A DNA stretch of 32,000 bases from Candidatus Omnitrophota bacterium. Lineage in GTDB: Bacteria > Omnitrophota > Gorgyraeia > 2-01-FULL-45-10. The position numbers and the translations under genes are program-made. The DNA lies in contig JAMWCX010000002.1 in NCBI GenBank assembly GCA_023818895.1, positions 150,001 to 182,000 on the forward strand. The letters run 5' to 3'. The notes under the pieces were generated by a model. That model was not told the origin of the DNA. It saw only the letters and a program-made list of their open reading frames with translations, and ran no database searches. The stretch's first letter is position 1. The number at the start of each line of letters is the position of its first letter. This document shows, piece by piece, positions 5,010 through 32,000 of this stretch.

Positions 5010-5087
5010 TGGTCGGGGCGGGCGGATTTGAACCGCCGACCTCTTGGTCCCGAACCAAGCGCGCTAAGCCAACTGCGCTACGCCCCG
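5010..5087 (-). tRNA. tRNA-Pro (anticodon CGG), CCA end encoded
   Basis: I folded the cloverleaf by hand. The minus-strand sequence is CGGGGCG-TA-GCGC-AGTTGGCTTA-GCGC-G-CTTGG-TTCGGGA-CCAAG-AGGTC-GGCGG-TTCAAAT-CCGCC-CGCCCCG-A-CCA. It has a 7-bp acceptor stem, 4-bp D stem, 5-bp anticodon stem with CGG at positions 34-36, and a T arm with a TTCAAAT loop. Confidence 0.92.
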
Positions 5088-6385: not shown

Positions 6386-7470
6386 CGCTCCACCTCTAAC
6401 AAGACATCCTTTTTGAACCTTTTTATCTTAATCGAGCCAAACTCTTTTGCTTCTTTTATACTTTCAACACCCCTTCCCTCGACAGATGTTATGGCCGACG
6501 CGCCCCCTATTATCTTGGGTGCGATAAAAAACAGGAACCTATCCGCAAGATTTTCTTCTACCAGGCTTGCAACGATCTCCCCTCCTCCCTCAACCAATAT
6601 GTTGATCATTCCCATGGCAGCCAACCTTCTGAGCAGCTTTTTCAGGTCCACTCTTCCGCTCTTCCCTTCAAAAAAAATAACCTCAACGCCTCTTTTCTCA
6701 TATTTTCGCTTCTTTACAAATGACGCTTTGCTAGTGGTCGCTATAATAACAGGCGATATATCTATCGTAGAGAATATCCTGGCGTTTAACGGCGTCTTAA
6801 GGGCGCTATCAACTATCACTCTGGCCGGCTGCTTGGCGCAACTTAGTTTGCACAAGAGAATCGGATCGTCCTTGAGAACCGTATTTACGCCTACGAGTAT
6901 GGCGTCTACCGACCGCCGCAGCCGATGGACATATCTTCTCGAATCTTCGTCCGTTATCCATCTTGAATCGCCACTCCTTGTAGCGATCTTCCCATCGAGA
7001 GACTGCGCAACCTTTACGGTAACAAAAGGCATCTTCCTCGTCATCGCCTTGATAAACGGCCTATTAATTGCCTTCGCCTCATTGGCCAAAATTCCCACCG
7101 ACGTATTTATGCCGGCGGCTTTTAACTTCTTTATTCCACGGCCGTTGGTTATGGGATTCGGATCCTTCATCGCTATAACGACTTTTCTGATCCCGCTCAT
7201 TATTATGGCCTGCGTGCAGGGCGGCGTCCTGCCGAAATGGTTACACGGCTCCAGCGTCACGTACATCGTGGCACCCTTAGCTAAGAAACCCGCTTCTTTA
7301 AGCGCGTTCACCTCCGCATGAGGAAGGCCGCATTTTTTATGATACCCCTTGCCTACGATCCTGCCGTTTTTCACTATAACGGCCCCAACAGCGGGGTTCG
7401 GACTTGTGTGGCCGATGCCTTTTTTTGCCAGATTAATCGCGACACGCATGTATTTTTCTTGGCCATCCAT
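6370..7470 (-). CDS. ribD: Bifunctional diaminohydroxyphosphoribosylaminopyrimidine deaminase / 5-amino-6-(5-phosphoribosylamino)uracil reductase
   Basis: Has the CMP/dCMP deaminase zinc motifs HAEVNAL and PCNHFGRTPPC, followed by a RibD C-terminal reductase domain. It overlaps ribE by 16 nt. Confidence 0.92.
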   Translation of the reverse strand: MDGQEKYMRVAINLAKKGIGHTSPNPAVGAVIVKNGRIVGKGYHKKCGLPHAEVNALKEAGFLAKGATMYVTLEPCNHFGRTPPCTQAIIMSGIRKVVIAMKDPNPITNGRGIKKLKAAGINTSVGILANEAKAINRPFIKAMTRKMPFVTVKVAQSLDGKIATRSGDSRWITDEDSRRYVHRLRRSVDAILVGVNTVLKDDPILLCKLSCAKQPARVIVDSALKTPLNARIFSTIDISPVIIATTSKASFVKKRKYEKRGVEVIFFEGKSGRVDLKKLLRRLAAMGMINILVEGGGEIVASLVEENLADRFLFFIAPKIIGGASAITSVEGRGVESIKEAKEFGSIKIKRFKKDVLLEVERCSPA

Positions 7471-9343: not shown

Positions 9344-10540
9344 CTAAAAATCTATATAGTGGCCCATTCTCTCTTTCTTCGTCTTCAGATATTTCCTGTT
9401 TGCCCTAGATGGAGGTATCTTCAAGGGCACTCTTTCGAGAACTTTAAGACCGTAACCCTCAAGCCCCACTATCTTCCTGGGATTATTTGTAAGCAGCTTT
9501 ATCTTTTTTAAACCAAGGTCAGCAAGTATCTGGGCGCCAATGCCGTAATCTCTAAGATCGTCTTTAAAACCAAGCGCCATGTTGGCATCTACGGTATCAA
9601 GGCCCTTGTCCTGAAGCTCATAGGCTTTTAGCTTATTAGCAAGTCCTATGCCACGGCCTTCCTGCCGCATGTATAAAACTACACCACCGCGGCTTTTGCC
9701 CACCAGCCTCATTGCCTCGCGAAGCTGCTGGCCACAGTCACAGCGCCGCGACCCAAAGACATCACCGGTCAGGCATTCTGAATGAACCCTAACTAACATG
9801 CCTTCTTTCTTTACCTTCCCCTTTACCAGAGCAATGTGGTGATATTTATCTGTAACCGATTCGTAAACGAAGGCCTTAAAAGTCCCAAAAGGCGTTGGTA
9901 TGGTTGTGGCGGCTATTTTTTTTATAAGCCTTTCCGACTTCCTCCTATATTCTATTAGATCCGCTATCGTACATATCTTAAGGCCGTGGGTTTTCGCAAA
10001 TTCAAACAGGTCCGATGTCCGCGCCATGGTACCGTCGTCTTTCATTATTTCGCATATTACGCCGACTGGAGGAAGGCCGGCAAGCCTCATAAGATCGATG
10101 CAGGCTTCGGTATGACCAGCCCGCACTAATACGCCGCCCTCACTTGCCCTTAGAGGAAAGACATGCCCCGGCCTTATCAGATCCGAAGATTTAGTACGCG
10201 GGTTTGCCAGTAATTTGATTGTGCGCGCCCTGTCATGCGCAGATATACCGGTTGTAATACCATGTCGCGAATCACATGAGATAGCCCATCCCGTCCGATA
10301 CGGATCGCGAGCACCTAGCGACATTGGATGCAGGTCCAGCTTGTCAAGCCTTGAGCCTTCCATCGGAACGCAGATGAGACCACGGCCTTCACGGGCCATG
10401 AAATTTATATCGGACGGCTTGGTGAATAAGGCCGCCATTATCAGGTCTCCCTCATTCTCGCGGTCGGCATCATCTACGACGATGACAATTCTGCCTTTTC
10501 TGATTTCAGCCAGTACTTCCGGTATTGAATTAAACTTCAT
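9344..10540 (-). CDS. ribBA: Bifunctional 3,4-dihydroxy-2-butanone-4-phosphate synthase / GTP cyclohydrolase II
   Basis: The RibB part carries [11 protein letters not shown] and RAGHTEA. The RibA part carries [18 protein letters not shown] and [11 protein letters not shown] placed the start at the ATG (MKFNS) rather than the TTG used by the ORF track. Confidence 0.92.
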
Positions 10541-10550
10541 ATATCTTTCC

Positions 10551-10583
10551 AAAAAAATAACCCCGAAAATTCTCTTCGGGGTT
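10551..10583 (-). terminator. Intrinsic terminator (attenuator) forming the expression platform of the FMN riboswitch
   Basis: The minus strand forms a perfect 9-bp stem, AACCCCGAA-GAGAATT-TTCGGGGTT, followed by ATTTTTTT. It ends about 10 nt before the ribBA ATG. The left arm CCCCGAAGA is also exactly complementary to TCTTCGGGG at the 5' end of the aptamer, which gives a possible antiterminator pairing. Confidence 0.75.
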
Positions 10584-10622
10584 AAAAACGGCTAACAAAA
10601 ACCGATAACTGACGGTTGGGCT

Positions 10623-10852
10623 GTCTTCTTCCATCCCGACTATACGGTCGGCACTTGAATTTCACAAGTTCTGTCCGTCATTTTATAAGCGCCTATTTTA
10701 ATCGCCACTAAAAATGACGAACTCGCGGGCTTTTATCCCTTTAGGAATATCAATTAAAAAGGGATGAACCGCCGGTCGAGGAATCTATGCCCGCCAAAGT
10801 CAATCCTTCTAAAATTTGCTATGGCTAAAGCAATCTACCCCGCCCCGAAGAC
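10623..10852 (-). promoter_or_regulatory. FMN riboswitch (RFN element) aptamer upstream of ribBA
   Basis: The minus strand contains the conserved RFN core blocks in the correct order. These are GTCTTCGGGGCGGGG, TTCCTCGACCGGCGGT, AAGCCCGCGAG, ACTTGTGAAATTCAAGTGCCGACCGTATAGTCGGGATGGAAGAAGAC. P1 is closed by GTCTTC/GAAGAC. The element is about 230 nt because of insertions between the core blocks. Confidence 0.85.
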
Positions 10853-11470: not shown

Positions 11471-12664
11471 ATGGAAAAAGAACAAGACAAGCTTCTGAGA
11501 CAGGAGATTGAGAGGCTCGAGTGGGAGTTCTCGCTTCTCTATGAGATCTCCAACGCGATGCGAACCACTCTCAACCTGGATCAGATATTATATATAATCC
11601 TCACGGCCCTCACATCGCATGAAGGGCTGGGCTTCAACCGCGCGATGCTCTTTCTGGTAAACGAGAAGGAGCAGGTGCTCGAAGGGGTTATGGGCATTGG
11701 CCCGCACACAGCGGAAGAAGCTGGGAAGATATGGCATGCCATCTCTCAGAAAAAAATGACGCTGGACGATTTCATAGCGTCATACGCGACTTTTAAAAAA
11801 GACCCCGAATCAAAACTTAATCAGATCGTAAAAGGCATCAAGATACCATTGAGAGAGGACATGGGAATACTGGCTCTCACGATACTGGAGGGCATGCCTT
11901 TTGAGATAACCACCCAGGAAGCAAAAAAGATTGTTGATCCAGAGATACAAAGGGCTCTCAATACCGATTTCTTCGTTACTATACCTCTAAAGGCCAAGGA
12001 CAAAGTCGTAGGCGCAATTCTTGTTGACAACATCTTTAACAAGAAACCTATAACTAAAGCGGATGTTAGAATGCTTGCCATGTTTGCCAGCCACGCCGGC
12101 CTCGCTATTGAAAATTCAAGGCTCTATGAGGAGACGGTGTATCTTTCAAATACCGACTGGCTTACGAAATTATGGAACTATGGCAAATTCCATCAGAGCC
12201 TTTCTTACGAGTTGGAAAAGTCGAAGATCGGGGACACGAGTGTGAGCCTCGTTATGGTTGATGTCGATAATTTCAAAAACTACAACGACACCCTCGGCCA
12301 CATGAAAGGCGATGAGGCGCTTAAAGCAATAGCCGGTGTCCTACAATCCAAGTCTCGCAAGGGTGATATCGTCGCCAGATATGGCGGAGAGGAATTCGCC
12401 ATAGTTATGCCAAATACCTCGAAGGAAAACGCGCGGCTTTTCGCCGAACGCCTGCGAAACGAGATTGAGAAGATGTTCTCTAACGAACCGGGCATAGATC
12501 CGGCAAAGGCCCTTACAATAAGCTGCGGCATCGCAACTTACCCGGAAGACGCCAACAAAAAAAGCGAGCTGATCTCACGCGCCGATCTCGCCCTTTATGA
12601 AGCAAAACACGCGGGTAAAAACAGGACTTGCGTATACTCCAAAGCGATGGAAGAAAAGAAATAA
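11471..12664 (+). CDS. GAF domain-containing diguanylate cyclase (GGDEF)
   Basis: The N-terminal region is GAF-like. The C-terminal GGDEF domain carries the active-site motif GGEEF. An RxxD I-site (RKGD) lies five residues upstream of it. Confidence 0.85.
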   Translation: MEKEQDKLLRQEIERLEWEFSLLYEISNAMRTTLNLDQILYIILTALTSHEGLGFNRAMLFLVNEKEQVLEGVMGIGPHTAEEAGKIWHAISQKKMTLDDFIASYATFKKDPESKLNQIVKGIKIPLREDMGILALTILEGMPFEITTQEAKKIVDPEIQRALNTDFFVTIPLKAKDKVVGAILVDNIFNKKPITKADVRMLAMFASHAGLAIENSRLYEETVYLSNTDWLTKLWNYGKFHQSLSYELEKSKIGDTSVSLVMVDVDNFKNYNDTLGHMKGDEALKAIAGVLQSKSRKGDIVARYGGEEFAIVMPNTSKENARLFAERLRNEIEKMFSNEPGIDPAKALTISCGIATYPEDANKKSELISRADLALYEAKHAGKNRTCVYSKAMEEKK

Positions 12665-12773: not shown

Positions 12774-15700
12774 TTAGGCGGGGACTGTAGCGGCTTGCTG
12801 AGTTGTTGAGGATTCTTGCTGCGTTTGTTGTGACTTTGTTTCCGCCTGCGTCTTTTTCTTCTCATCCAGAAACTTTACTGAAACTATCTTCGAAACCCCT
12901 CTTTCCTGCATCGTTATGCCGTATATCACATCCGCAAGCTCCATCGTGCGCTTGTTATGCGTTATTATTATAAACTGCGACATTTTGACGAATTCCCTGA
13001 GGACACTTGCGAAGCGCACGACATTTGACTCATCAAGAGGCGCATCCAGCTCGTCAAGCACGCAGAACGGGCTGGGCTTTACCTTGAATATAGCGAAGAG
13101 AAGGGCGCAGGCGGTCAGCGCCTTTTCGCCGCCTGATAAAAGCATGAGATTCTGGAGCTTTTTCCCAGGCGGCCTTACTATTATCTCGATGCCCGATTCC
13201 AGTATATCCTGCTCGTCTATCAGCACCAGCTCCGCCTGCCCACCGCCGAAAAGCATACGAAAGAAATTCTTGAACTCAACCTGTATTTTCCTGAAAGTAT
13301 CTATAAACTGCTCCTTGGTGGTCTTATTAATCTTCTGTATCGCCTTCATCAGGGAATCTTTTGCGTTGACGAGATCCTCCTGCTGATGTATCAGGAAGTT
13401 ATTTCGTTCTTCAAGCTCTTTGTGCTCGTCAATCGCGACAAGATTAACCGGCCCCATCTTGTCAAGCTTGTCTTTAAGCTCAGCGACCTGGGCCTTTATT
13501 GCTTCCCAATCTATATTTTCCTCTATCTCCAAATGGGCTGTTTCAAGGTCTACTTTATAAGCCTGCAATATTTTGTCTTTTAGGTTGGTCTTCTTGAAGT
13601 TAAGCTCTGTGAGTTTTACGTCAATATCCCTTATCTGGTTTCTAAGGGCCTCCTGCCGGGCTTCATTTTCTTTAAGCCGAACTTCATCCATGCTAAGCCT
13701 CAAGACCAGATCGGCTCTTTCGCCTTCTACGGCCGAAGATTCCTCGGAAATTGTTTTCATCTCCGAGGAAATTGCATCATTATCAGACAGAAGCTTTGCG
13801 ATTTCTTCCTCAAGGGTCTTTATCTTTTCTGAGGTCTCCTTAAGAAGGGTTTCTTTGGAATAGATGGTATCTTCGAATTCAAAAAGAAGGGTCTGGTGTG
13901 ACCTCAGATTGTTCCTTACGCTCTCCTCCTCCTTCTCGAGCGATTGCGCCTCAGCCCTCAAAGTGGCCATCTCAAGAGTTATATTTTGGCGCTGCACATT
14001 CTTTTCGGAAATAAGATTTTGGGATTGGTCTATAAAATCCTGCATGGAGGACTTTTCTGCCTCTATCGCATTAAGTTCGGAATTCAGCGACTCCCCTCTG
14101 GCAGTTAGCTCCTCCAACATCTGGTTTACCTCTTCAAGTTCTGAATCCAGCAGGAATAGTTCGTCTTTGAGCTTCTGTACAGAGGCCCCCTGAGCATCCT
14201 TTTTTGTCCTGGCATTTGCCAGGTTTATATCTTCCTGATGAAGACCCGCCTCCATAGAGATTATTTCCGCTTGAAGGGCCTTGCCAATTCTCTCCTTCTC
14301 GGCACGGCAGCCTCCCAGAGAGAGGACTTTTTCTTCGCACATCCGAAGTTCCGCCTTAAGCTCTTCCAGCCGTTCGCGGCGCCCTATAAGCATGGACTCA
14401 CTGTTTTCACCGGAACTCCCTCCAAGCACCTTGCAACCGTCTACCATCTGGCCGGTTTTTGTCACAAACCGGCTGGCGTGCCGACCGGATACTCCCATTC
14501 CATCCCCAAGGGAATCCACAAGATAAGCGTCCCCAAAGAAATAATCCAGGACGATTTCGAACTTTGTGTCCGCCTTCACAAAATTCCTCAAGGTTACCCT
14601 GTCACTTGAAATGCCTCTGGCAGCTGCCTCATTTGGCCGGTTACGCAGTGACTCTAACGACAAAAAACAGGCCTTCCCCAAACTATTGGCATTGAGATAT
14701 TCCACCGCCCTTAGAGCATCACTCTCGGTCTCTGTTATTATAAGCTGGGCGTCGTCTCCCAGTAGGACGGATACCGCCTCTTCGTATCCCCTGTCTACTT
14801 TTACGATATTTGCTAAAGCTCCCAGTATACCGCTAAATAAAGCTTCACCCTCAGCGGATTTTAAAAGTATGCTTCTGACACCATTCTTAAAACCCTCATA
14901 TGTCTTCAGGCTTTCCTCAAGCATCTCTATTTTCGATAAAAGGGCGGATCTTTTGTTATCTTCTTTAGCTATCTCCAGTTCTATAGTCTTTACAGCCGAT
15001 AAGGCCTCCTCGCTTGCCCTCCTCTTTGACTCTAGCTCTTGGCGCAACGCAAGAACCTTGTTCTCGATTGTTTTGAACCCCAACAAAACTTCCGAAAGTG
15101 CCTTTTCGGCAGATTCCAACTCCTTGGCGACATCGCCCTTTTCGATTTCAAGCCTGCGCTGACGCGCCTTTCTGTTCTGAATATCGGCACCTATCTTTAT
15201 AAGATCGTTTTTTATCTTCGTCTCCTTGGCAAGATAATCGACTATCCGCACCTTGAATTCCTTGACTCGCGATTCAGTCTCTTCGATCTCTCTGGCTATA
15301 TTAACAAGCATAGCCTCCCGCTCGCTTACGGCCTTCTGCTTCTCAGCTCTCCCTGAGGCGGCCTTATCAAGATCCGACTTCAGGCTTTCGACAAGAGCCT
15401 TTTCAGCGCCGATTTTCTCGGCTATAGATTCGACCTCCTTGCGCAAACCGTCCTGCAGCTCGATGGACTCGGCTATTCTTTCCCTGTTCACCTCTATCTT
15501 ATGTTTATTCATGTCGAGTAAATTCGACATCTCGGATATACGGCTACGAATAGCAGTCATCTTATTATTGAAATCATTAAGAGCTCGCCTCTGGGCTTCT
15601 ATGTTTGAGGCTATTTCCGCAATGCAAGCGCTAAGCTCTTTTTCCCTGGCCCTCGTATCATCGCTTTCAACTGTATATGTCGCCTCCTGCGTCTTCAGGC

Positions 15701-22550: not shown

Positions 22551-23245
22551 TTTGTCTTTCTCGCCCTGTAAATGGCTTTATCCTTGTATCTGCACATATT
22601 ATACAAAACGCAAAACCCGCAAAGAGGGTTTTGCGCCTTACATATCTTTCGACCGTGCTCTATTATACCTAAATGGAAGGCGTATATCAAGTGCTTAGGC
22701 ACAAGCTTTGTAAGTACGCTATGGGCTTGTTCTACGGTAACTTTTCCGCTTAAAAGACCCATCCGCTTCGCCACCCTGAATATATGCGTATCTACCGGCA
22801 TGGCCGGTTTTCCAAAACTGAACAGAAGAACACATGCGGCGGTCTTCGGCCCGACTCCTTTTAGAGAGCGAAGATAGAGAAGCGCATCTTCGACATCCAT
22901 TTTCTTCAGAGACGAAAGGCTCAGCCTGCCCTCGCGCCTTTCGATTTCGGAAAGCACCTCTTTGATGCGGGCCGCTTTGATATTCGCAAGGCCGGCGTGC
23001 TTTATGAGACCCGCTATGCTACTCGTATCTGCCTTAAGCAGACTCTCCCACGACTTAAAATGACGTTTCAATATGGCGAACGCCGCAAGCGAATTTCTAT
23101 CGTTGGTATTCTGGGAAAGTATGGTGCGGATTATCTCATCGATCGGCGGAGTCTTCCGTAAGGGTGCGGGTCGGCCGTATGCCTTCTCAACTAAAGCCAG
23201 GACCTTTTCTGTCTTCTGCTTGTTTCTCATAAAAGGAGGTCTCAT
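22547..23245 (-). CDS. nth: Endonuclease III-like HhH-GPD DNA glycosylase
   Basis: Has the HhH motif LKGVGPKTAACVLLF, the catalytic region VDTH, and a C-terminal 4Fe-4S cluster loop CKAQNPLCGFCVLYNMC. Confidence 0.8.
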   Translation of the reverse strand: MRPPFMRNKQKTEKVLALVEKAYGRPAPLRKTPPIDEIIRTILSQNTNDRNSLAAFAILKRHFKSWESLLKADTSSIAGLIKHAGLANIKAARIKEVLSEIERREGRLSLSSLKKMDVEDALLYLRSLKGVGPKTAACVLLFSFGKPAMPVDTHIFRVAKRMGLLSGKVTVEQAHSVLTKLVPKHLIYAFHLGIIEHGRKICKAQNPLCGFCVLYNMCRYKDKAIYRARKTK

Positions 23246-23320
23246 TATAAATCAATAGCTTTCCGTATAGCAAGCATTTTTCGGGTAAAGATCTTATTGA
23301 TTTTGGAACTGTTCTTTTTG

Positions 23321-24574
23321 CTATAACCCTCCATGTCGGTAGGCCGCCTCTACTGATTTACTCACTCTATATGCGATCAGTCCTCCCACCGCGGAACCTA
23401 ACGCTCCCTCAAAGGTATGAACAACGATGTACCATGGAGCGTAGAACTTGTGCCAAATATATGGCGATGCGACAAAATAAAAATACAGATATACGGACAA
23501 GCCGCGTAACAGGCCCGCTATAAAGAATGACTGCCGTGAGGCGAGATAGTCTTTCGCCGCGAAAAAATAGGTTTCCAGGACAGCCGCCTCAAGCAATGCG
23601 TAAGGCCACCAGAGCGGATTTATCCCGCGAGAGACTATCTGCGCAAAGAGGCTGTGGCCGAGGATCATAAGAGTTGCTGTTCCGAAACGCGGCACTATAC
23701 GAATGCCTATAAGAAGAACGCATGTAAAAGGTATGGAAAAGAAGAAGGCGTGCACAAGTGGAACCTTGCTAAGGCCCATTTTAAAAGGCAATATAGCGAC
23801 ATACAATAAAACAACGAAGAACGATATTACGATGAGGTCAAGTGTATCAAATCTCAAAAGGCCGCCCTTTTCCCTGGAGTTTGCCTTGCGAAATGAATAA
23901 CCTCTTACTTCAGCGGCAAGCGCAACCAATCGCGCTTGACGTAACGAATTAATGACCAAAGGCGATAAGACATATTTCGAGGCTTTAATGCTATTTGATA
24001 TGCCTTTAAGCTTGAAACCTTTTAACCTTATCGCTACCAAGACTCTTCTTGTCTCTTCCAGTAGCTGAGGCAAGAATCGCATGCTCGTGGCAATGATAAA
24101 ACTTAGCTCTTTAGGTATCCGAATTTTGTTCAATGCCATTATCATCTGGGATGGATGAGTTGATATCACAACTGCGGTTGCCATGAACATAACTGACGAT
24201 ATCCTGAGAGACTGAATAAGCCCGTATAAGGCTCCTTCCTTATAGATATAAATCCCGCCTGTTATCGTTCCGACGATAGGCGTCGCCTTATCTATTATAG
24301 TTACAAGGACTGTCCTCGGTTCCAGATAATAGAAGAATGCTTGTGAAAGGCTCGTCGTTATCACTACTGCTCCGAGCGCATATATGAGGCCCTTAAGCCT
24401 GGCAAAATCAGGTTTTGCTAACAGCAACACGCAGAAGGTAACCGCTGCCAGAAGGCATAGCTGTAAGGGGGCCTTCAGCAACACCACAAGGAGCGAAACC
24501 GCTATACTGTATACTATCTTCGCGAAAGGGCTAATCCTGTGTATAGGCGTATCAATCTTTTGGTATTTCATCAC
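23321..24574 (-). CDS. ECF transporter transmembrane T component (EcfT/CbiQ-like) fused to a C-terminal S-component-like membrane domain
   Basis: The N-terminal ~270 aa look like CbiQ/EcfT, with two coupling-helix A-x-x-x-R/K-G motifs (VAIRLKGF, AAEVRGYS). The C-terminal ~150 aa are additional TM helices with the blocks PRFGTATLM, LLEAAVLETYFFAAKDY and GALGSAVGGLIAYRVSKSV. These resemble the YkoE/COG4721 S-component pattern as I recall it. Confidence 0.7.
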   Translation of the reverse strand: MMKYQKIDTPIHRISPFAKIVYSIAVSLLVVLLKAPLQLCLLAAVTFCVLLLAKPDFARLKGLIYALGAVVITTSLSQAFFYYLEPRTVLVTIIDKATPIVGTITGGIYIYKEGALYGLIQSLRISSVMFMATAVVISTHPSQMIMALNKIRIPKELSFIIATSMRFLPQLLEETRRVLVAIRLKGFKLKGISNSIKASKYVLSPLVINSLRQARLVALAAEVRGYSFRKANSREKGGLLRFDTLDLIVISFFVVLLYVAILPFKMGLSKVPLVHAFFFSIPFTCVLLIGIRIVPRFGTATLMILGHSLFAQIVSRGINPLWWPYALLEAAVLETYFFAAKDYLASRQSFFIAGLLRGLSVYLYFYFVASPYIWHKFYAPWYIVVHTFEGALGSAVGGLIAYRVSKSVEAAYRHGGL

Positions 24575-25928
24575 TTATAACCCTACCTTTATCAAACACG
24601 ACGACCCTGTCGGCATAGAAATCCGCAACTTTCCTATTGTGGGTTGAGAACAGGACCGTCGTTCCCTCCTTGACGAGCGAAAAGGCATAATCCATCAATG
24701 CCAACCAGCTTTTTTCATCCAGACCTGTCGTCGGCTCATCAAGTAATATTATATCGGGCCTCAAGGCCGCGACAGAAGCAAAAGCCACTTTCTGGCGCTC
24801 GCCTTTTGACAACGCATGGGGATGTACATACTCGTATTTCTTAAGGTCGAATCGGGCCATTATGTCCTCGCAATCACACGCTTTCTTCAACTGACGCGGC
24901 CCGAGCATTATCTCTTCCCTTACCGTAGAGGCGAATAGCTGTTCATCGGGATTCTGGAACAATAGCCCGATCCTGCCCGCCGAATCATCGATCGAGCGGA
25001 TGATGTCACCGGCTACCGCGATACGACCTTCCTGCGGCTTTAAAATGCCCATCAGCAGTTTAAAAAATGTGGTCTTACCGCTTCCATTATTACCCATGAA
25101 AGCGACCACTTCTTGTTTTCTTATAATCATGTTCAGATGATTAAAAAAAGGCGAGCTTTTGTCATAACCATATGACACGTCCTGCACCTCAATAATCGCG
25201 TCGAAGTCTTGACAGAAGTTGTGTGCTTTTCTTTCACGGATGGTGCTCTTGTGGGCATCATCCCCCGTTTTGAGAACCCCGTTCTCCATAACATATATAC
25301 GTGTGGCAATATCTTCAAAAAGTGCCGTATCATGCTCAACTAGCACGATTGTATAGCACCTGTCTTTTAGCTCTTTGATGATCTTCCGGAGCGACTGTTT
25401 TCCAGCAACGTCCAGATTAGTCGAGGGCTCATCGAATAGTATTATCTGAGGTCCTACAGCATAGACACCGGCGATCGCAAGCCTCTGCTTTTCTCCGGCC
25501 GAAAGCGTACTGGTGTCTCTATCTAAAAGCTCATCAAGACCCAGTTCAAGTATGGCATGGCGCGAATTTCTTTCGAGAGACTCCTCTTCAAGACCCACAT
25601 TCCGGCAGCCGAATTCGACATCTTCTCTTACCGTGGGCATAAATATCTGATATTCCGGATTCTGAAATACCGTACCCACTCTTCTTGATATTTCACTTAT
25701 CGGTGTTAGCCTGGGATCGACGTCCGCTATCATCACAGATCCTGACATATCCCCACTAAATACGTGCGGGACAAGTCCATTCAGACAATAAAGAAACGTT
25801 GACTTGCCGGAACCGGAAGGGCCAGTGATCAAAACAAGGTCGCCTTTATCGACCGTTAAATCGATGCCGTTTATGATTTTTTTATGTGAAAGCGGGTAGG
25901 AATAGGAGAGATTCTTTATCTCGATCAT
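24552..25928 (-). CDS. ECF transporter duplicated ATPase (fused EcfA-EcfA', YkoD-like)
   Basis: Contains two complete ABC domains. The Walker A motifs are GPSGSGKST and GNNGSGKTT. The signature motifs are LSAGEKQRL and LSKGERQKV. The Walker B motifs are ILFDEPST and ILLDEPTT. It overlaps the downstream T gene by 23 nt. Confidence 0.88.
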   Translation of the reverse strand: MIEIKNLSYSYPLSHKKIINGIDLTVDKGDLVLITGPSGSGKSTFLYCLNGLVPHVFSGDMSGSVMIADVDPRLTPISEISRRVGTVFQNPEYQIFMPTVREDVEFGCRNVGLEEESLERNSRHAILELGLDELLDRDTSTLSAGEKQRLAIAGVYAVGPQIILFDEPSTNLDVAGKQSLRKIIKELKDRCYTIVLVEHDTALFEDIATRIYVMENGVLKTGDDAHKSTIRERKAHNFCQDFDAIIEVQDVSYGYDKSSPFFNHLNMIIRKQEVVAFMGNNGSGKTTFFKLLMGILKPQEGRIAVAGDIIRSIDDSAGRIGLLFQNPDEQLFASTVREEIMLGPRQLKKACDCEDIMARFDLKKYEYVHPHALSKGERQKVAFASVAALRPDIILLDEPTTGLDEKSWLALMDYAFSLVKEGTTVLFSTHNRKVADFYADRVVVFDKGRVISDEIPKD

Positions 25929-26635
25929 CGACGCAAGTTGTTGGTAAAAAGATCTATAATACCGCTGTAATCTTCGCCTTTCGAACGCGAAAATACCACA
26001 TTTTTTAAGTATCTTCTGGCAACAGCGGCCGCTTCAGCCAGTTCGGTGCAATCCGGCTCGCGATACGGTAAGCCGTCGACCTTCATATAGCCTATTATCC
26101 TGAAAGGGATATTCGCATCTACCACCGAAATCAATTTAGCCACCTTTTCTATTTCTTCTTTATCCAAGAGGTCCGGTATCAAGACACTGGAGATAGAGAG
26201 TTCTATCCCATTCCTATGTACAAAACGGAGATTTTCGAGGCATCTTTTATTGGACTTCCCGGTATATCTTTTGTGGACCTCCTCATCGGCAGCTTTTATG
26301 GACATCGACACGTGGGTTACGCCATCAAGACAGGGAAGTATATAACCGTTGGTAAGAAGCCGGACCTTGCATCCTATCTCTTCTTTAAGTACCCTGGGCA
26401 GACGAATGTAATCGGCAGTCGGCACAGGGTCGCCACTTAATATCGAAACAGACCGCGGGTTTACTTTTTTCAGCAGTCCGATAACCTCATCCATTGTCGG
26501 AAACTTAAGAGTTCTGAGCTTCACGTTTCCATATATCTGTTTCCAGTAGCAGCAGACACAGCGGAAGTTACACCCTATGAAATAGAGCGAACATGATCGT
26601 GTCTTCGGATTGTGGGTAATCCTGTGTATATTCAT
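25925..26635 (-). CDS. Small radical SAM enzyme (236 aa), function unknown
   Basis: The CX3CX2C motif is C22-NFR-C26-VC-C29, within YFIGCNFRCVCCYW. A GGE-like SAM motif (ILSGDP) follows. Its ATG shares one base with the stop of the TonB-dependent receptor gene, and its stop overlaps the ATPase start by 4 nt. Confidence 0.8.
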   Translation of the reverse strand: MNIHRITHNPKTRSCSLYFIGCNFRCVCCYWKQIYGNVKLRTLKFPTMDEVIGLLKKVNPRSVSILSGDPVPTADYIRLPRVLKEEIGCKVRLLTNGYILPCLDGVTHVSMSIKAADEEVHKRYTGKSNKRCLENLRFVHRNGIELSISSVLIPDLLDKEEIEKVAKLISVVDANIPFRIIGYMKVDGLPYREPDCTELAEAAAVARRYLKNVVFSRSKGEDYSGIIDLFTNNLRR

Positions 26636-28653
26636 CAGAACTTTATCTTGGCCTGTACGTCCACCGTGCGGGGCGGCATCAGAGTATTCAGGTAGTTCTG
26701 ATACCGCGCGTCGAAGAGATTGTCGATCTTGACCAGCACGCTGAAGTTCTTTGTGATTTCCTTGGAGACACCCAGGTCGAACACATAGCTTTCTTTGATC
26801 TTCTGGGTGTTCGTGTCATTTGTGAACATTATACCAGTATATCGTCCCGCCAGATCAAGGTCAAATAGCTTCGGCAGGGTAAGCGACAGGCCGAAGGAAG
26901 ACTTGTTCTTGGGGGTATAGACGAGGTATTTTTTCAGAGTATTCGTATTTGTGTGATCTTCAATCCTGGAGGAGTTTAGCGTATAGTTGGCGTAAACAAA
27001 GAAGTATTCATTAAGCCGATAACTTAACCCGGTTTCCATGCCAAAAATGTCAACATGCCCGATGTTCTGCCGAAGTTTCGTCTTCTCGCTTATATCAGCG
27101 CTATATATGAGATCGCGCACATCACTGTGATAGAAGGTCGTCCTCAAAAGCAATTTTTTCGCAAATAGATAATCGACCCCTATTTCGTATGAATAGGCCC
27201 GCTCCGGCTTAAGGTCAGGGTTTGCCTGATAGACGGTCGTGCCCATCTGCCAGGTACGGTACTGGTCATAAAGCGTCGGTATGCGAAAAACTTTGCCCGA
27301 GCCGCCGCGAAGCGTCAGCTCTTCAGTCACGTGCAGGATAGCGCTTGCCGCGGGCGAGAGCGCCTTGCCGGATACCGGGCCATAGCCGGTCTCCCTCCTA
27401 GCCACCGCCCAGTTCGTATCATAGCCATAGCCGTCGTAATTGGTCCATAAATCCAGTCTCCCGCACAGATAGACCAAAAGTTTTTCGTCGAGGAATTTGA
27501 GTTCGTCCTGAAGGTACAGCCCTTCCGTGGCCTGCGTGCCGTGCGCCTGCGTTCTTCTTGTGGAGGCAATGTATTCGTCCCTGCTGTTGATCTTGCCCCA
27601 GCGCCAATCAAAACCAGCGACGATTGTATTATTTCTGCAGATATCAAAGGTCGTCTGGACGTTCCCGCTCCATTCACTCTTGGGATTACGGTTTACATAA
27701 GATGGGATATACTGCGGCAGTCCGCGCGCCCTTTGGGCGGCGGTGGCGATGGTATCAATCCACTGGGTGGTATTTTCCCATCCGAAATTCATCGACGCGA
27801 AGACCTCCATAATGCCGGTGATCACTTTCCTGCCGGACATCGTCAGATTATCAAGGTCCTGTTCGCTCAGGTAATTCTGCCTGCCGAGACACGCCTCCTG
27901 ATTAAAATACCGGTATTCTGCGGTAACGTAAGAGTCTTCGTCAAAATCGTATCTGGTCTTAATGTCCGCCGTGTAGCTTTCGCGCCACCTGCGTATATCC
28001 CAGTAGTTCCGGTTAGCGGCCGCGACATAGCCGTTAGTCCTGTAAGCGCTTCCCGAAAGAATATAACTGAAATTTTTGTATTTAAAAGCATGCCTGAAAT
28101 CCGCTGACCGGGTGGCGAAACTTCCATAGGAGAGGTAAACGTCTGTCTCGGGTTTATCCGGAAGCTTTGTTATTATGTTTATGACACCTCCCATGGCACC
28201 GGGGCCGTATATGGCCGAAAACGGCCCTGGCGAGACCTCGACCCGCTCAACATCCTTTGGATTAATGGCGTTCCAATAGACTTCGCCCGTATATATCTCG
28301 TTAAAGCGCACCCCGTCTATGAGAACAAGTGTGCGGCCTCTGACGTCTGTGCCGAAACCGCGTAATGAGACTTTGCTTACAGTCGATGTAAAACCCTGGG
28401 GGCGCTGCACATCAACGCCCGGCAACGCGCGCAGCGTTTCATCTATGGTAGCGGGATTCTGACGCTCGATCTGATCGCCCTCTACCATCGACACAGCTGC
28501 CGGTGCGTCGTATAAGGTAACGGCATTGCGCGCCGGTGTAACGACTATTTTATCCAGTTTAACGCTGCTTTCTTCTCCATAAACAGTAGTCGCTGCCATA
28601 AAAGATGCGACAGCAAATATTATCCCTAATAACCTGAGAACACCTCGCGCCAT
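26635..28653 (-). CDS. TonB-dependent outer-membrane receptor
   Basis: Has a signal peptide, a TonB-box-like DKIVVTP, and plug-domain blocks (LRALPGVDV, LIDGVRFN, GPGAMGGVINIITK). A long beta-barrel region ends in AKIKF with a terminal Phe. A strong RBS (GAGGAGGAGGAG) is present. Confidence 0.88.
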   Translation of the reverse strand: MARGVLRLLGIIFAVASFMAATTVYGEESSVKLDKIVVTPARNAVTLYDAPAAVSMVEGDQIERQNPATIDETLRALPGVDVQRPQGFTSTVSKVSLRGFGTDVRGRTLVLIDGVRFNEIYTGEVYWNAINPKDVERVEVSPGPFSAIYGPGAMGGVINIITKLPDKPETDVYLSYGSFATRSADFRHAFKYKNFSYILSGSAYRTNGYVAAANRNYWDIRRWRESYTADIKTRYDFDEDSYVTAEYRYFNQEACLGRQNYLSEQDLDNLTMSGRKVITGIMEVFASMNFGWENTTQWIDTIATAAQRARGLPQYIPSYVNRNPKSEWSGNVQTTFDICRNNTIVAGFDWRWGKINSRDEYIASTRRTQAHGTQATEGLYLQDELKFLDEKLLVYLCGRLDLWTNYDGYGYDTNWAVARRETGYGPVSGKALSPAASAILHVTEELTLRGGSGKVFRIPTLYDQYRTWQMGTTVYQANPDLKPERAYSYEIGVDYLFAKKLLLRTTFYHSDVRDLIYSADISEKTKLRQNIGHVDIFGMETGLSYRLNEYFFVYANYTLNSSRIEDHTNTNTLKKYLVYTPKNKSSFGLSLTLPKLFDLDLAGRYTGIMFTNDTNTQKIKESYVFDLGVSKEITKNFSVLVKIDNLFDARYQNYLNTLMPPRTVDVQAKIKF

Positions 28654-28727
28654 CTCCTCCTCCTCAATCTTTCTTTAGTGTTACTACTACAATAATCGTG
28701 CTACTCTTATGCAAAAAAATAAAGTCC

Positions 28728-29141
28728 TCATACTATACATCTACCCGTGCTCGACATGCCGAGGGTCGCATGTTTAACGCCCCTTACAGCCTTAAGCGTA
28801 TCGGCGAGCCTTTGCGCCTCTCTGGCGCTTCCTCTTATCGCTATGATCTCCATGCAGTTATGGTGATCTATATGTATATGCTGGGTCGATATGATGTTTT
28901 TGCCGTGGTCATGCTGGATATCCATCAACTTATTAACGAGCTCTCTCTGGTGGTGGTCATAGACTATCGTTATCGTCCCAACCACATCCGCGTCCTCCTC
29001 CCATTCCTTCTTAACAAGCTCCTTGCGTATGAGGTCGCGGAACGCCTCGGAGCGGTTCGTGTAATTTTTTCTTTCGATAAGGCGATCGAATTTCTCAAGC
29101 AGCTCTTTGTCGAGTGATACGCCGAACCTTACCAAGCCCAT
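28728..29141 (-). CDS. nikR: Nickel-responsive transcriptional regulator NikR
   Basis: The N-terminal ribbon-helix-helix is RFGVSLDKELLEKFDRLIERKNYTNRSEAFRDLIR. The C-terminal ACT-like domain has the His/Cys cluster QHDHGKNIISTQHIHIDHHNC, which aligns with the E. coli NikR high-affinity Ni site region. Confidence 0.9.
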   Translation of the reverse strand: MGLVRFGVSLDKELLEKFDRLIERKNYTNRSEAFRDLIRKELVKKEWEEDADVVGTITIVYDHHQRELVNKLMDIQHDHGKNIISTQHIHIDHHNCMEIIAIRGSAREAQRLADTLKAVRGVKHATLGMSSTGRCIV

Positions 29142-29156
29142 ACGGTCTATCCTTTT

Positions 29157-29185
29157 AATGCTACTTTTTTAAGAATTGTAGCATT
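29157..29185. promoter_or_regulatory. Candidate NikR operator: perfect inverted repeat AATGCTAC-N13-GTAGCATT
   Basis: This 8-bp perfect palindrome with a 13-nt AT-rich spacer lies 16 nt upstream of the nikR ATG and overlaps the predicted -10 box. Its geometry matches the 7-N13-7 (GTGTTAC-N13-GTAACAC type) NikR boxes I recall from non-enteric bacteria. Confidence 0.55.
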
Positions 29186-29202
29186 ACTATTATTTTAGTC
29201 AA
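29175..29202 (-). promoter_or_regulatory. Sigma70-type promoter reading into nikR and the downstream receptor/ECF genes
   Basis: The minus strand reads TTGACT, a 16-nt spacer, then TACAAT. The -10 hexamer is embedded in the upstream half-site of the palindrome. Confidence 0.45.
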
Positions 29203-29259
29203 TAGAATTTTTTAAAAACGTTGGCAGCGGCATACTTTTATCAAAAAATTTATGAGGTT

Positions 29260-30018
29260 TTACTGCCCGATAAGACCAACGGAGAGTATTGAAGACAGCA
29301 AAAGTTTTGTGTAAGGATGGCTTGGCCTGTTGTAAACATTGTCGACATCGCCCTCCTCCACGATCCTGCCCTGCCGCATCACAGCGAGCCGATCGCACAT
29401 GTATTTCACCACCCGCAGGTCGTGGCTGATAAAAAGATACGTTATACCTAATTTTCTCCGGAAGTCTTTAAGAAGGTTCAATATCTCAAGTTGTATCGTG
29501 ACATCAAGGCTCGAGACCGGCTCGTCGCAGACGATGAATTCCGGCTCGGTGATTATCGCCCTGGCGATGGCGATCCTCTGGCGCTCACCGCCGGAGAACT
29601 GGTGCGGAAATTTCATCAAGGCAGACTCCGGAAGCTTCACAAGGTCAAGCGCTTCCCTGACTTTTTCTCTTATTGGCGTCATGCGCCCTGTAACATTCGC
29701 CTTTAAAACAAGCCCTTCGGCGAGTATATCACATACTCTCATCTTAGGATCCAGGCTGTTATACGGATCCTGGAATACCGCCTGAAGCTTCGTCGTTTTC
29801 AGCTCGACTGACCCTGCGTCCGGCTTAATAACGCCGAGGATGATCCTGCCGAGTGTCGTCTTGCCGCAGCCTGATTCCCCCACAAGGCCGAAGGCTTCGC
29901 CTTTATTTATCGTAAGCGAAACGCCGTCAACTGCCTTAACCGCGCCTATGGTATCCTGCAGATAACCGCGCTTTATCGGAAATTCTTTCCTTACATTTTC
30001 ACATTTGGCCAGTATCAT
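29260..30018 (-). CDS. ABC transporter ATP-binding protein, peptide/nickel family (NikE/OppF-like, short form)
   Basis: Walker A is GESGCGKTT, the signature is FSGGERQRI, and Walker B is FIVCDEPVSSLD. A C-terminal RPSHPYT motif is present. At 252 aa it lacks the long Opp-type C-terminal extension. Confidence 0.85.
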   Translation of the reverse strand: MILAKCENVRKEFPIKRGYLQDTIGAVKAVDGVSLTINKGEAFGLVGESGCGKTTLGRIILGVIKPDAGSVELKTTKLQAVFQDPYNSLDPKMRVCDILAEGLVLKANVTGRMTPIREKVREALDLVKLPESALMKFPHQFSGGERQRIAIARAIITEPEFIVCDEPVSSLDVTIQLEILNLLKDFRRKLGITYLFISHDLRVVKYMCDRLAVMRQGRIVEEGDVDNVYNRPSHPYTKLLLSSILSVGLIGQ

Positions 30019-30800
30019 GCGAGCGCCTTTACGGATTCCAATAACGCTATTGTATAAGGATCCTTGGGTCTTCCTATAACCATCTTCGTATCACCGAACT
30101 CCACTATTTTTCCTTTATTCATCACGGCGACCCTGTCGCACATTTTCGCTATTATGCCGAAATCGTGACTTATAAATAGGACCGAGAGGTTCTCACGCTT
30201 GATTATCTCCTCGAGAAGCTCGAGTATCTGTGCCTGTGTCGTTACATCAAGGGCTGTCGTTGGCTCATCAAGTATGAGAAGCTGCGGCGAATTGGCAAGC
30301 GCCATCGCTATCATAGCACGTTGCTTCATCCCGCCTGAGAGTTGGTGCGGATAATCGGCGTAGACTTTATGCGAATCCGGAATCTGCGCTTTTCGAAGGA
30401 ATTTCATAACTATATCCTTTACCTTCCAAGCCGCCATCGGATTGTGCGCCGTAATAGCCTCACTTATCTGATAGCCGATGGTAAATACCGGGTTAAAAGC
30501 GCTTGCCGGTTCCTGAAATACCATCGATATCTTTGAGCCGCGGATATCGCGCAAGGACTTTTCGTTCATAACCAATATATCTTTGCCGTTAAAAAGGATG
30601 CTTCCTGACGTTATCTTCCCGGGCGGTGATATAAGCCTCAGAATCGAAAGAGCCGTCAAAGTCTTACCGCAACCTGACTCTCCTATAAGGCCAAATACCT
30701 CCCCCTTCCGGATGTCAAAATTTATACCGTCGATGGGCCTGACAACACCGTACGGGGTATCGAATTGCACTCTTAAGTCCTTTACGCTTAATATATCCAT
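30015..30800 (-). CDS. ABC transporter ATP-binding protein, peptide/nickel family (NikD/OppD-like, short form)
   Basis: Walker A is GESGCGKTL, the signature is LSGGMKQRA, and Walker B is LLILDEPTTALD. It overlaps the next ATPase gene by 4 nt. Confidence 0.85.
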   Translation of the reverse strand: MDILSVKDLRVQFDTPYGVVRPIDGINFDIRKGEVFGLIGESGCGKTLTALSILRLISPPGKITSGSILFNGKDILVMNEKSLRDIRGSKISMVFQEPASAFNPVFTIGYQISEAITAHNPMAAWKVKDIVMKFLRKAQIPDSHKVYADYPHQLSGGMKQRAMIAMALANSPQLLILDEPTTALDVTTQAQILELLEEIIKRENLSVLFISHDFGIIAKMCDRVAVMNKGKIVEFGDTKMVIGRPKDPYTIALLESVKALA

Positions 30801-30801
30801 C

Positions 30802-31620
30802 TTATTTTCGAAGCCTCGGCTCCATGAGGTCTCTCAATCCCTCCCCCAATAGATTATACGCAAGCACCGTCAGCAATATAAATACGCCTGGAAATACAGT
30901 AAGCCACCAGGCAACTCCTAAAGTCGATTTGCCATCCATCAGAATGTTACCCCAGCTCGGAGTAGGCGGTTGTACCCCTATGCCCAGAAAGCTGAGCGAG
31001 GATTCAACGAGTATGGCGCCACCTACGCCAAGAGTCGCATTCACCATGACCGGCCCTATAGCGTTCGGTATCAGATGCCTGAAGATTATCCAGGCGCCGT
31101 TGGCGCCCATTACCTTTGAGGCCACCACGTAGTCCCTCTCTTTAAGGGTAAGTATCTCCGCTCTTATGAGGCGGGCTACACCCATCCAGCTGGTCGCGCC
31201 TATTATAACCATTATGTTGAATATTGAGGGTTCGAGAACCGCTATCACAGCGAGTATAAGAAAAAATGTCGGGAAGCACAGCATTATATCCACAAACCTC
31301 ATTATTATCGAATCCACCTTGCCGCCGTAATATCCGGCAACTGAACCTAAGAATACACCTATAAGCACCGCGATGCCAACAGCGATGAACCCTATCGACA
31401 AAGATATCCGCGAGCCGTAGACTATCCGCGAGAATAGATCGCGGCCGAGAGCGTCTGTGCCGAAGATATGCTTTGCGGACGGCGCGGCAAGTACATTTTT
31501 GGAATCGATATACGATGGGTCGTAGGGAGCTATAAAGGGCGCAAATAAGGCAAAAGCAATCATCAGAGTTATGAAGTCTAACCCCACAAGCGCCATTTTG
31601 TTATTTAAGAATTCTTTCAT
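30802..31620 (-). CDS. ABC transporter permease, peptide/nickel family (NikC/DppC/OppC-like)
   Basis: Multi-pass permease with the typical N-terminus (FAPFIAPYDP) and a BPD_transp_1 EAA-loop region (ASKVMGANGAWIIFRHLIPN). Confidence 0.85.
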   Translation of the reverse strand: MKEFLNNKMALVGLDFITLMIAFALFAPFIAPYDPSYIDSKNVLAAPSAKHIFGTDALGRDLFSRIVYGSRISLSIGFIAVGIAVLIGVFLGSVAGYYGGKVDSIIMRFVDIMLCFPTFFLILAVIAVLEPSIFNIMVIIGATSWMGVARLIRAEILTLKERDYVVASKVMGANGAWIIFRHLIPNAIGPVMVNATLGVGGAILVESSLSFLGIGVQPPTPSWGNILMDGKSTLGVAWWLTVFPGVFILLTVLAYNLLGEGLRDLMEPRLRK

Positions 31621-31638
31621 CTGTTCCTAATCGCCGCC

Positions 31639-32000
31639 TTAAGCATTTTCTGTAATCCTTATCCTCGGGTCAGCGTATGAATATGCGATATCCGCAAGCA
31701 AATTACCAAAAAGTGTCAGCACAGCGCCAATTGACAACACCCCCATTATCGTAGGGTAGTCACGCGCCATGACAGATTCGTAAAAAAGCCTGCCCATCCC
31801 GGGTATCGCGAATATTGATTCGAATATGACGCTTCCGCCGATGAGGCCGGGTATCGAAAGCCCCAGTATCGTGATAACCGGAAGTATAGCGTTCTTTAAA
31901 GCGTGCTTATATATAACAACCGACTCCTTCAGGCCTTTGGCACGGGCTGTCCTTATGTAGTCCTGATGCATCACGCCCACCATCGAGCCGCGCATGTAAC
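31639..32000 (-). CDS. ABC transporter permease, peptide/nickel family (NikB/DppB/OppB-like), C-terminal part; continues beyond the window end
   Basis: The EAA-loop sequence is [24 protein letters not shown], and the C-terminus YSYADPRIR is typical. The reading frame stays open to the window edge. Confidence 0.8.

Follow-up and report, generated by a model that had tools for sequence, protein, structure and literature searches.

What does a bacterium import with an operon that joins a nickel-responsive repressor to an outer membrane receptor, a small radical enzyme and an inner membrane transporter? The question is raised by positions 23321-29202 of a 32,000-nucleotide stretch of DNA (hereafter the window) from the Candidatus Omnitrophota contig JAMWCX010000002.1 (assembly GCA_023818895.1, positions 150,001 to 182,000). 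The locus encodes NikR, a TonB-dependent receptor, a radical S-adenosylmethionine (rSAM) enzyme and the two polypeptides of an energy-coupling factor (ECF) importer, and forms a compact, defined set of five genes and two candidate operators. We lean towards the view that this module serves to import an organic nickel complex across the whole envelope under repression by nickel, the cargo then being processed by radical chemistry in the cytoplasm. Free Ni2+ is scarce in anoxic, sulfidic habitats, and nickel is limiting there for hydrogenases, CO dehydrogenase/acetyl-CoA synthase and nickel-pincer enzymes. To our knowledge, little is established about the form in which anaerobes take up nickel, and no ligand has been assigned to the known nickel TonB-dependent receptors. 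The module links a receptor in the outer membrane straight to an ECF importer, without a binding protein in the periplasm, and it would add a new family of substrate-capture (S) components and a new family of PflA-like rSAM enzymes to those that act in metal acquisition.

All five genes are located on the minus strand of the open reading frame (ORF) list. The gene for NikR, a ribbon-helix-helix nickel-responsive repressor of 137 amino acids (aa), is found at 29141-28728, with a gap of 118 nucleotides (nt) on its 5' side. It is followed, after a spacer of 74 nt, by the genes for the receptor (672 aa, 28653-26635), the rSAM enzyme (236 aa, 26635-25925), a fused A-A' ECF ATPase (458 aa, 25928-24552) and a fused T-S ECF membrane protein (417 aa, 24574-23321). 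As read from the sequence, the receptor and rSAM genes overlap by 1 nt (TTCTGATGAAT) and the rSAM and ATPase genes by the 4 nt of an ATGA junction (CGATGATCG). The overlap of the ATPase and T-S genes is 23 nt with the GTG start at 24574 and 20 nt with the adjacent ATG at 24571. These overlaps of 1, 4 and 23 (or 20) nt confirm an earlier description made without database searches (the sequence-only reading), in which nikR was followed by four overlapping genes. The ATGA junction is kept in most related loci, with an overlap of 7 nt in L007 and L011 (L-numbers are the labels of the related loci that we compared). By the look of its junctions, the rSAM gene is tightly coupled on both sides.

For the comparison with relatives, we took in 54 loci, of which about 38 were non-redundant, and labelled their ORFs by BLASTP against the proteins of the window. 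Carriers of the module were Omnitrophota, Syntrophorhabdaceae, Smithella/Syntrophales and other metagenome-assembled genomes (MAGs). Setting aside the loci with an SBP_bac_5 gene described below, the rSAM gene was directly followed by genes for the A-A' ATPase, T and S in 33 of the 34 loci with downstream DNA, the exception being a contig end. An adjacent receptor gene was present in 28 and nikR in 17 of the about 38 loci, and several contained a dedicated TonB gene. The grouping first suspected from a single stretch of DNA is thus a conserved module, in which the rSAM gene adjoins the ECF genes, usually with a receptor gene and often with nikR. A second gene order, receptor-AA'-T-S-rSAM, was observed in Smithella and other long contigs (L047-L049). 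The rSAM of these loci is only 32% identical to that of the window and their S protein belongs to the family whose recovered members are 48-66% identical to the S domain of the window, so the pairing is an old one rather than a local accident.

Four Eremiobacterota/Vulcanimicrobiota loci have yet another arrangement, in which the rSAM gene follows a gene for a 630-aa SBP_bac_5 protein (NikA/Opp family) behind a NikR-type box. The sequence-only reading had suggested that the enzyme might process the imported substrate, and this idea gains strength from the finding that the enzyme stays with the importer as the type of importer changes from ECF to SBP_bac_5 and Peripla_BP_2/FecCD systems. Since the simplest common factor of three unrelated importer types is the cargo, we infer that the enzyme would process the cargo in the cytoplasm.

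Irregular loci were also recorded. An extra ORF of 144 aa is located between the receptor and rSAM genes at L051:4687-5121 and L038:6532-6966; it has no Pfam match on record and encodes hydrophobic helices and, C-terminal to them, a CxxC...CxxC motif resembling a zinc ribbon. At L046:7001-7213, the rSAM is recognisable over its first 53 residues only, beside an S-like ORF and TonB-like genes, and may be a decayed or rearranged copy.

The enzyme itself has the CxxxCxxC motif and the core fold of the radical SAM superfamily. It matched PF04055 with 60.8 bits (cut-off 29.5) and contains a single cluster motif, C22xxxC26xxC29, in which all three cysteines are invariant; C89 is also invariant, and both termini are strongly conserved (MNIHRIT... 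and ...DLFTNNLRR). Among the curated Pfam and NCBIfam families, it matched the generic superfamily alone, with all specific models far below their cut-offs. The closest NCBIfam models were NrdG2 (TIGR02495, 47.7 bits against a cut-off of 131.15), then YjjW, MoaA and PflA, none of them passing. The public annotation is "radical SAM protein" and no more, and about 80 close homologues (50-79% identity) all originate from metagenomes or MAGs. The best sequence matches in the Protein Data Bank (PDB) were PflA and MoaA. An AlphaFold2 (AF2) model with a mean predicted local distance difference test score (pLDDT) of 91.6 superposed best over its full length on PflA (3c8f/8fo0, template modelling (TM) score 0.75-0.77), followed by NifB, SuiB, LipA, viperin and MoaA. 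The profile search thus places the enzyme in no characterised family, and the outcome that would have spoken against the sequence-only reading, membership in a well-characterised family with an unrelated role and a lack of synteny with receptor or ECF genes, was not found.

Two more specific identities were rejected. Like PflA and other glycyl-radical activases, the enzyme is of the same small size and has a compact partial barrel fold; it is only 18-19% identical to PflA, the activase models scored far below their cut-offs (besides TIGR02495, TIGR02493 with 37.3 against 231.75 bits and TIGR02494 with 28.1 against 174.35 bits), and no glycyl-radical enzyme partner was seen in any annotated neighbourhood. 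The comparison drawn earlier with ChuW/HutW holds as a concept, that of an rSAM enzyme within a TonB-dependent metal-chelate uptake locus and of metal release without oxygen, but not as homology. ChuW and HutW are HemN-like class C methyltransferases of about twice the size, whereas the enzyme studied here is a 236-aa, PflA-like minimal rSAM, and no HemN/ChuW-type model was present among its 24 NCBIfam matches at expect values (E) up to 0.01.

A paralogous branch of rSAM enzymes, 32-38% identical over about 90% of the length and with the motifs SIKA...H..YTGKSN and IP.RI.GY in common, is located inside corrinoid-salvage and import clusters of Bathyarchaeota/Bathyarchaeia, Thermoprotei and Dehalogenimonas (L052:6001-6765, L053:6001-6759, L054:7001-7732 and 10095-10835). 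The Bathyarchaeota context is Peripla_BP_2-DUF4015-rSAM-FecCD-ABC (ATP-binding cassette) beside CbiB, CbiZ and CobS, and that of Thermoprotei is similar. Two copies occur in Dehalogenimonas, where the neighbours are CbiZ, CobA, CbiB, a class II-like ribonucleotide reductase and a reductive dehalogenase (RdhAB). Like the module enzyme, the paralogs are embedded in importer operons for a metal-containing cofactor. They differ in their neighbours, which are BtuFCD-type importers, CbiZ, CbiB, CobS and a class II-like ribonucleotide reductase rather than NikR and ECF genes, in an insertion after the cluster motif and in the absence of the DLFTNNLRR C-terminus that is conserved in the module rSAM. 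The sister branch suggests a wider, unrecognised class of radical enzymes handling imported metal cofactors.

For the importer, the ATPase contains two ABC_tran domains and passed the cut-offs of TIGR04521 (ECF_ATPase_2, 344.9 bits against 330) and TIGR04520 (335.6 against 315). In the T-S protein, residues 1 to about 235 (23870-24574, minus strand) constitute the T (EcfT/CbiQ) domain, with a match to PF02361 (CbiQ) of 99.3 bits (cut-off 25) at residues 9-228 and a score below the cut-off for TIGR02454 (64.7 against 111.8). The remaining C-terminal part of about 180 residues (residues about 236-417, 23321-23866, minus strand) had no Pfam match at E up to 10, and its profile matched no chain among the PDB sequences. 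It was assigned as the S domain from its predicted fold: the AF2 model (pLDDT 91.1) had 5EDL as its top Foldseek match (E 2e-4, TM 0.69, probability 1.00), followed by ThiT and RibU. The structure 5EDL is YkoE of B. subtilis, the S component of a group-I ECF transporter (PMC5037267). With the YkoE family model PF09819, the S domain of the window gave no match, that of L001 an E of 2.1 and those of distant family members E values of 9e-7 and 3e-3; some members of the S family are labelled as thiamin/hydroxymethylpyrimidine (HMP) permeases in JGI. The family comprises just 36 representative clusters among 1.84 billion proteins, and invariant positions in it are occupied mainly by Trp, Tyr, Phe and Pro, His occurring once.

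The T and S domains form one polypeptide in the window and in at least 10 independent assemblies (including L006, L007, L009, L011, L023, L024, L026, L027 and L031), and are encoded by separate genes of 262-266 aa (T) and 206 aa (S) in the Syntrophorhabdaceae-type loci. Hence the fusion is genuine, and its C-terminal domain stands as a unit of its own. Some assemblies have the S gene broken into two or three ORFs (L003:10972-11591, L039, L004 and L012:8755-9995), and in L012 the T-S gene is broken as well. Either the module is decaying there, or a frameshift or an assembly error has occurred.

With its EcfA-type ATPase, CbiQ/EcfT-type T domain, six-helix S fold and genes located together, the transporter is by these models a group-I ECF system, in which the S component is assigned at the level of the fold only. 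PF01891 (CbiM/NikM) matched neither the T-S protein as a whole nor, with E values up to 10 admitted, its C-terminal domain. The same model is readily detectable, as it matched the neighbouring NikM of L024 in a Pfam scan and is on record for the NikM of L048. As far as the models go, the S component is neither NikM nor another described family, and the closest architecture is YkoEDC.

Two known ECF systems may be compared. The nickel and cobalt importers NikMNQO/CbiMNQO likewise have dedicated ECF A and T components in one operon and are under NikR with the same type of operator in many bacteria (PMC545781). The module differs from them in that its S component is not CbiM/NikM, NikN/K/L partners are absent, A-A' and T-S are fused, and a TonB-dependent receptor and an rSAM are integral parts. 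The other system is YkoEDC, the group-I ECF transporter of B. subtilis for thiamine/HMP, which like the module has a dedicated T component and includes the nearest solved S fold. The module ATPase also resembles YkoD, a fused A-A' ATPase. Here the differences are the absence of a sequence-level S match and of a THI riboswitch, and the presence of NikR-type sites and of receptor and rSAM partners. The statement in the sequence-only reading that the module is not simply the canonical nickel pump agrees with these data, since the S domain is not NikM/CbiM and a canonical NikM(L)QO is located beside the module in two relatives.

The receptor has a signal peptide (N-terminus MARGVLRLLGIIFAVASFMAATTVYG), a TonB box (DKIVVTP), a plug domain (PF07715, 98.2 bits) and a C-terminal beta-barrel of 22 strands (TonB_dep_Rec_b-barrel, PF00593, 145.6 bits), as is characteristic of TonB-dependent receptors. 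Its best matches to more specific models were sub-threshold and included heme/hemoglobin, siderophore and B12 receptors; the heme, B12 and siderophore models scored similarly and all below cut-off in five lineages and are uninformative about the substrate class. The closest solved sequence relatives are Cir and BtuB, via the plug domain. TonB-energised nickel receptors repressed by NikR are known from H. pylori (FrpB4 and FecA3) and have been predicted elsewhere (Bll6948 and Daro_3944; PMC11247825). The module receptor would have in common with FrpB4 and FecA3 an outer membrane, TonB-energised nickel step under NikR, the likeness being at the level of the generic receptor family. We know of no description of FrpB4/FecA3-type receptors with an ECF importer or an rSAM. 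NikR-regulated TonB-dependent receptors and NikR-regulated ECF nickel importers are thus already known, and what is probably new is the combination of a receptor with a YkoE-like ECF system, whose S component represents a new family, and with an uncharacterised rSAM as an obligatory part. We found no published description of this combination in full-text searches, one key older paper being outside the coverage.

The connection to nickel comes from the regulator and its candidate sites. NikR contains the RHH_1 and NikR_C domains (PF01402 and PF08753) and matched the equivalog model NF003381 with 191.5 bits (cut-off 105). Its gene is preceded by a sigma-70-like promoter, TTGACT-16-TACAAT with TG before the -10 hexamer (29202-29175, minus strand), which has 10 of 12 consensus matches and is the equal-best match on its strand within 23100-29400. 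In the gap 5' of nikR, a pattern scan identified a putative operator (operator 1, 29184-29158, minus strand), the inverted repeat ATGCTAC-N13-GTAGCAT, with the extended form TAATGCTAC-N13-GTAGCATTA; its left arm overlaps the -10 hexamer. Only this palindrome had been listed earlier, and the scan added a second candidate, GTAGCAC-N13-GTAACAC (operator 2, 28704-28678, minus strand), in the spacer between nikR and the receptor gene. The deliberately loose pattern RTRNYAY-N13-RTRNYAY had these two matches in the 32-kb window, compared to 0.29 expected from shuffles. Judged by their sequences, both sites resemble the delta-proteobacterial NikR signal GTGTTAC-N13/14-GTAACAC, which has been reported both inverted and everted (PMC545781), and both have the two half-sites and the 27-28 bp length of a NikR operator.

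Nearly all pattern matches in the related loci fell at the same two places, about 40 nt 5' of nikR and just 5' of the receptor gene. Equivalents of operator 1 were present in the same place and form in L001, L003, L006, L013, L016, L017, L023-L026 and others. Those of operator 2 preceded the receptor gene in most relatives, even in loci without nikR (L014/L037 and L018/L045), and the box 5' of the SBP_bac_5 gene in the Eremiobacterota loci is of the same type. The earlier proposal of NikR control over the whole unit is supported, at the level of putative sites, by two operator-like sequences that match the published signal and recur at the same positions in relatives. The site on the nikR side is always inverted; on the receptor side, it is everted in L003 and L016 and consists of half-sites in the same orientation (GTAGCAC-N13-GTAGCAC or GTAACAC) in L006, L022, L023, L025 and L026.

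A simple scan found no terminator-like structure between nikR and the receptor gene, so that transcription could start from either promoter and read-through from the nikR promoter into the receptor gene appears possible. The nikR promoter with the palindrome noted in the sequence-only reading is indeed present and need not be the sole entry to the operon; an operator and a -10-like box of its own belong to the receptor gene. No Rfam riboswitch preceded the module in the window or in 15 relatives at the gathering threshold, the L001 leader matched no Rfam family with E values up to 5, and the THI-box riboswitch of the YkoEDC type was accordingly absent from the window and the 15 related loci. 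The Syntrophorhabdaceae-type loci have a longer nikR-receptor spacer of 350-370 nt that contains a conserved leader (L001:5640-5835, L003:5672-5845 and L040:1295-1480). This leader, which has no Rfam match and is absent from the window, contains a hairpin with compensatory changes and the invariant loop CCTTGGCAGG, followed by an anti-Shine-Dalgarno sequence, CACCTCC, that could pair with the Shine-Dalgarno sequence GGAGGTG.

The neighbouring genes in relatives also point to nickel. Canonical NikM-PDGLE/CbiQ/ABC nickel ECF genes, that is NikM(L)QO, directly adjoin the module in L024 and L048. Genes for LarC, LarB and LarE, which make up the complete nickel-pincer cofactor set and scored above their equivalog cut-offs, are located directly 5' of receptor-AA'-T-S-rSAM-NikR in L049 (211-3137) and L050. 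Taken together, the nikR gene, the two conserved operator-like sites and the NikMQO and LarBCE neighbours suggest a link to nickel that is strong for computational evidence. In L018 (2237-7506; the same in L045), genes for a methyltransferase, FecCD, an ABC ATPase, a MoeA-like protein and Peripla_BP_2 are located directly 5' of the module, and a methyltransferase gene also adjoins the rSAM gene in L007.

If the link to nickel is correct, the cargo is probably not the bare ion. The S domain is not of the CbiM/NikM family and its nearest fold is that of the vitamin-binding YkoE. TonB-dependent receptors normally serve large or scarce chelates, and in NikM it is the free N-terminus that ligates nickel. 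The presence of a receptor, an S pocket rich in aromatic residues, an S N-terminus fused to T and the coexistence of the module with canonical NikMQO therefore all argue for an organic complex. We envisage that NikR would leave the operators at its own promoter and before the receptor gene when nickel is scarce, allowing the operon to be transcribed. The TonB-dependent receptor would then carry the nickel complex through the outer membrane, and the S domain of the dedicated group-I ECF transporter would capture it in the periplasm for delivery to the cytoplasm. There the rSAM, translationally coupled to the ATPase, might carry out an oxygen-sensitive radical step on the imported cargo that makes the nickel or nickel cofactor usable.

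A more specific version of this scheme, which we offer tentatively and consider rather unlikely, is that a nickel tetrapyrrole is imported, the most plausible candidates being F430 or one of its breakdown products, released by methanogens, and that the rSAM attacks the macrocycle and frees the nickel. It is suggested by the sole rSAM paralogs with an informative context, which sit in operons for the salvage and import of corrinoids, themselves tetrapyrroles, and by the aromatic-rich S pocket. The nearest, sub-threshold models of the receptor include those of heme and B12 receptors. It also fits that the module occurs in MAGs of Syntrophorhabdus, Smithella/Syntrophales and Omnitrophota that originate from anoxic sediments or, for one Syntrophorhabdus bin, from a bioreactor; these lineages live alongside methanogens. 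Host-dependent traits are described in Omnitrophota (PMC10066038). If true, the process would be a nickel counterpart of anaerobic heme-iron harvesting.

Other explanations assign different tasks to the enzyme. It could be biosynthetic, making or maturing a secreted nickelophore or a nickel cofactor of which the receptor and ECF importer take up the loaded product, as in metallophore operons that mix synthesis and uptake genes. The constant clustering of the enzyme with uptake genes under the same nickel control is compatible with this, as are the LarBCE cofactor-synthesis genes next to the module in L049 and the presence of cofactor builders, MoaA and NifB, among its nearest relatives in sequence and fold. 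We nevertheless regard such a role as unlikely: a single one-cluster enzyme of 236 aa is all there is, no exporter or other biosynthetic gene being conserved in the module; a binding protein is its only companion in the Eremiobacterota loci; and the paralogs occur in clusters for corrinoid salvage, not de novo synthesis. The fold itself raises another alternative, namely a PflA-type, protein-directed enzyme that modifies or activates a transporter subunit, a binding protein or a nickel enzyme. PflA is the best match both by full-length superposition and by PDB sequence, and the high conservation of the two termini is what might be expected of a protein-protein interface. However, the failure to see a glycyl-radical enzyme in the annotated neighbourhoods and the low scores of the activase models speak against it. 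The capture proteins encoded next to the enzyme moreover have three unrelated folds (ECF S, SBP_bac_5 and Peripla_BP_2), a common protein target is therefore improbable, and we give this alternative little credence.

The cargo may also be other than an organic nickel complex. Import of free Ni2+ (or Co2+) as by NikMNQO, with the rSAM as an accessory factor that leaves the cargo alone (perhaps a sensor of redox state or of SAM, or a protein akin to a metallochaperone), would explain the NikR control and the ECF architecture, both of which are features of the known importers of nickel ions, and the NikR-regulated receptors FrpB4 and FecA3 of H. pylori do serve nickel uptake (PMC11247825). It is difficult to reconcile with an S domain that is unrelated to CbiM/NikM, has no free N-terminus and has aromatic residues rather than metal ligands as its invariant pocket residues, and the presence of canonical NikM(L)QO next to the module in L024 and L048 suggests that the latter has another task; simple ion import thus seems to us a doubtful explanation. 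Still less probable is a corrinoid or another vitamin as the cargo, with the NikR linkage due to cross-talk or co-location. The nearest fold to that of the S domain is found in an S component that binds a vitamin, the paralogs belong to corrinoid salvage and import clusters, and B12-type import genes adjoin the module in L018 and L047. In L047, these are FecCD/ABC and receptor-CbiZ-TonB units immediately downstream of the module, with two cobalamin riboswitches (12479-12648, 94.4 bits; 14483-14657, 68.5 bits). However, the riboswitches belong to these adjacent genes only, which makes cobalamin unlikely as the cargo; the module itself has no riboswitch but a NikR-type box 5' of its TonB gene. 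The absence of Rfam riboswitches before the module in the other loci searched is in line with this, and the NikR boxes, nikR, NikMQO and LarBCE all point to nickel instead.

Several observations weigh against the uptake of an organic nickel complex with radical processing, which we still prefer. Its basis throughout is sequence, models and genomic context. The half-sites of operator 2 in the window point the same way, contrary to what a symmetric NikR tetramer would lead one to expect. Several loci (L007, L011 and L041-L044) have no operator match, and about half of the loci have no nikR nearby. The enzyme with the closest fold, PflA, has protein substrates, and a cargo of free Ni2+ retains a small probability. 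Finally, the receptors of different lineages are only 28-52% identical, compared to 55-79% for the rSAM and S proteins, so that co-inheritance appears looser for the outer membrane partner.

The rest of the window adds little to the module. Genes for an ABC permease and ATPase system of the Opp/Dpp/Nik family (B partial, then C, D and E) are located directly upstream at 29260-31995 on the minus strand, and their best model matches were to Opp/Dpp/Nik. The sequence-only reading had called this system NikBCDE-like, which is correct at the family level only, because none of the genes scored above a nickel-specific NCBIfam cut-off. Upstream gene sets of this type are unlinked to the module in relatives (e.g. 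L006). Positions 1-23000 contain housekeeping genes, including SMC, ribBA, leuBCD, asd and an nth-like glycosylase gene. Amid these are an ORF of 427 aa on the plus strand (6038-7321) without a Pfam family at E up to 1e-5 and a tRNA gene on the minus strand (5013-5087).

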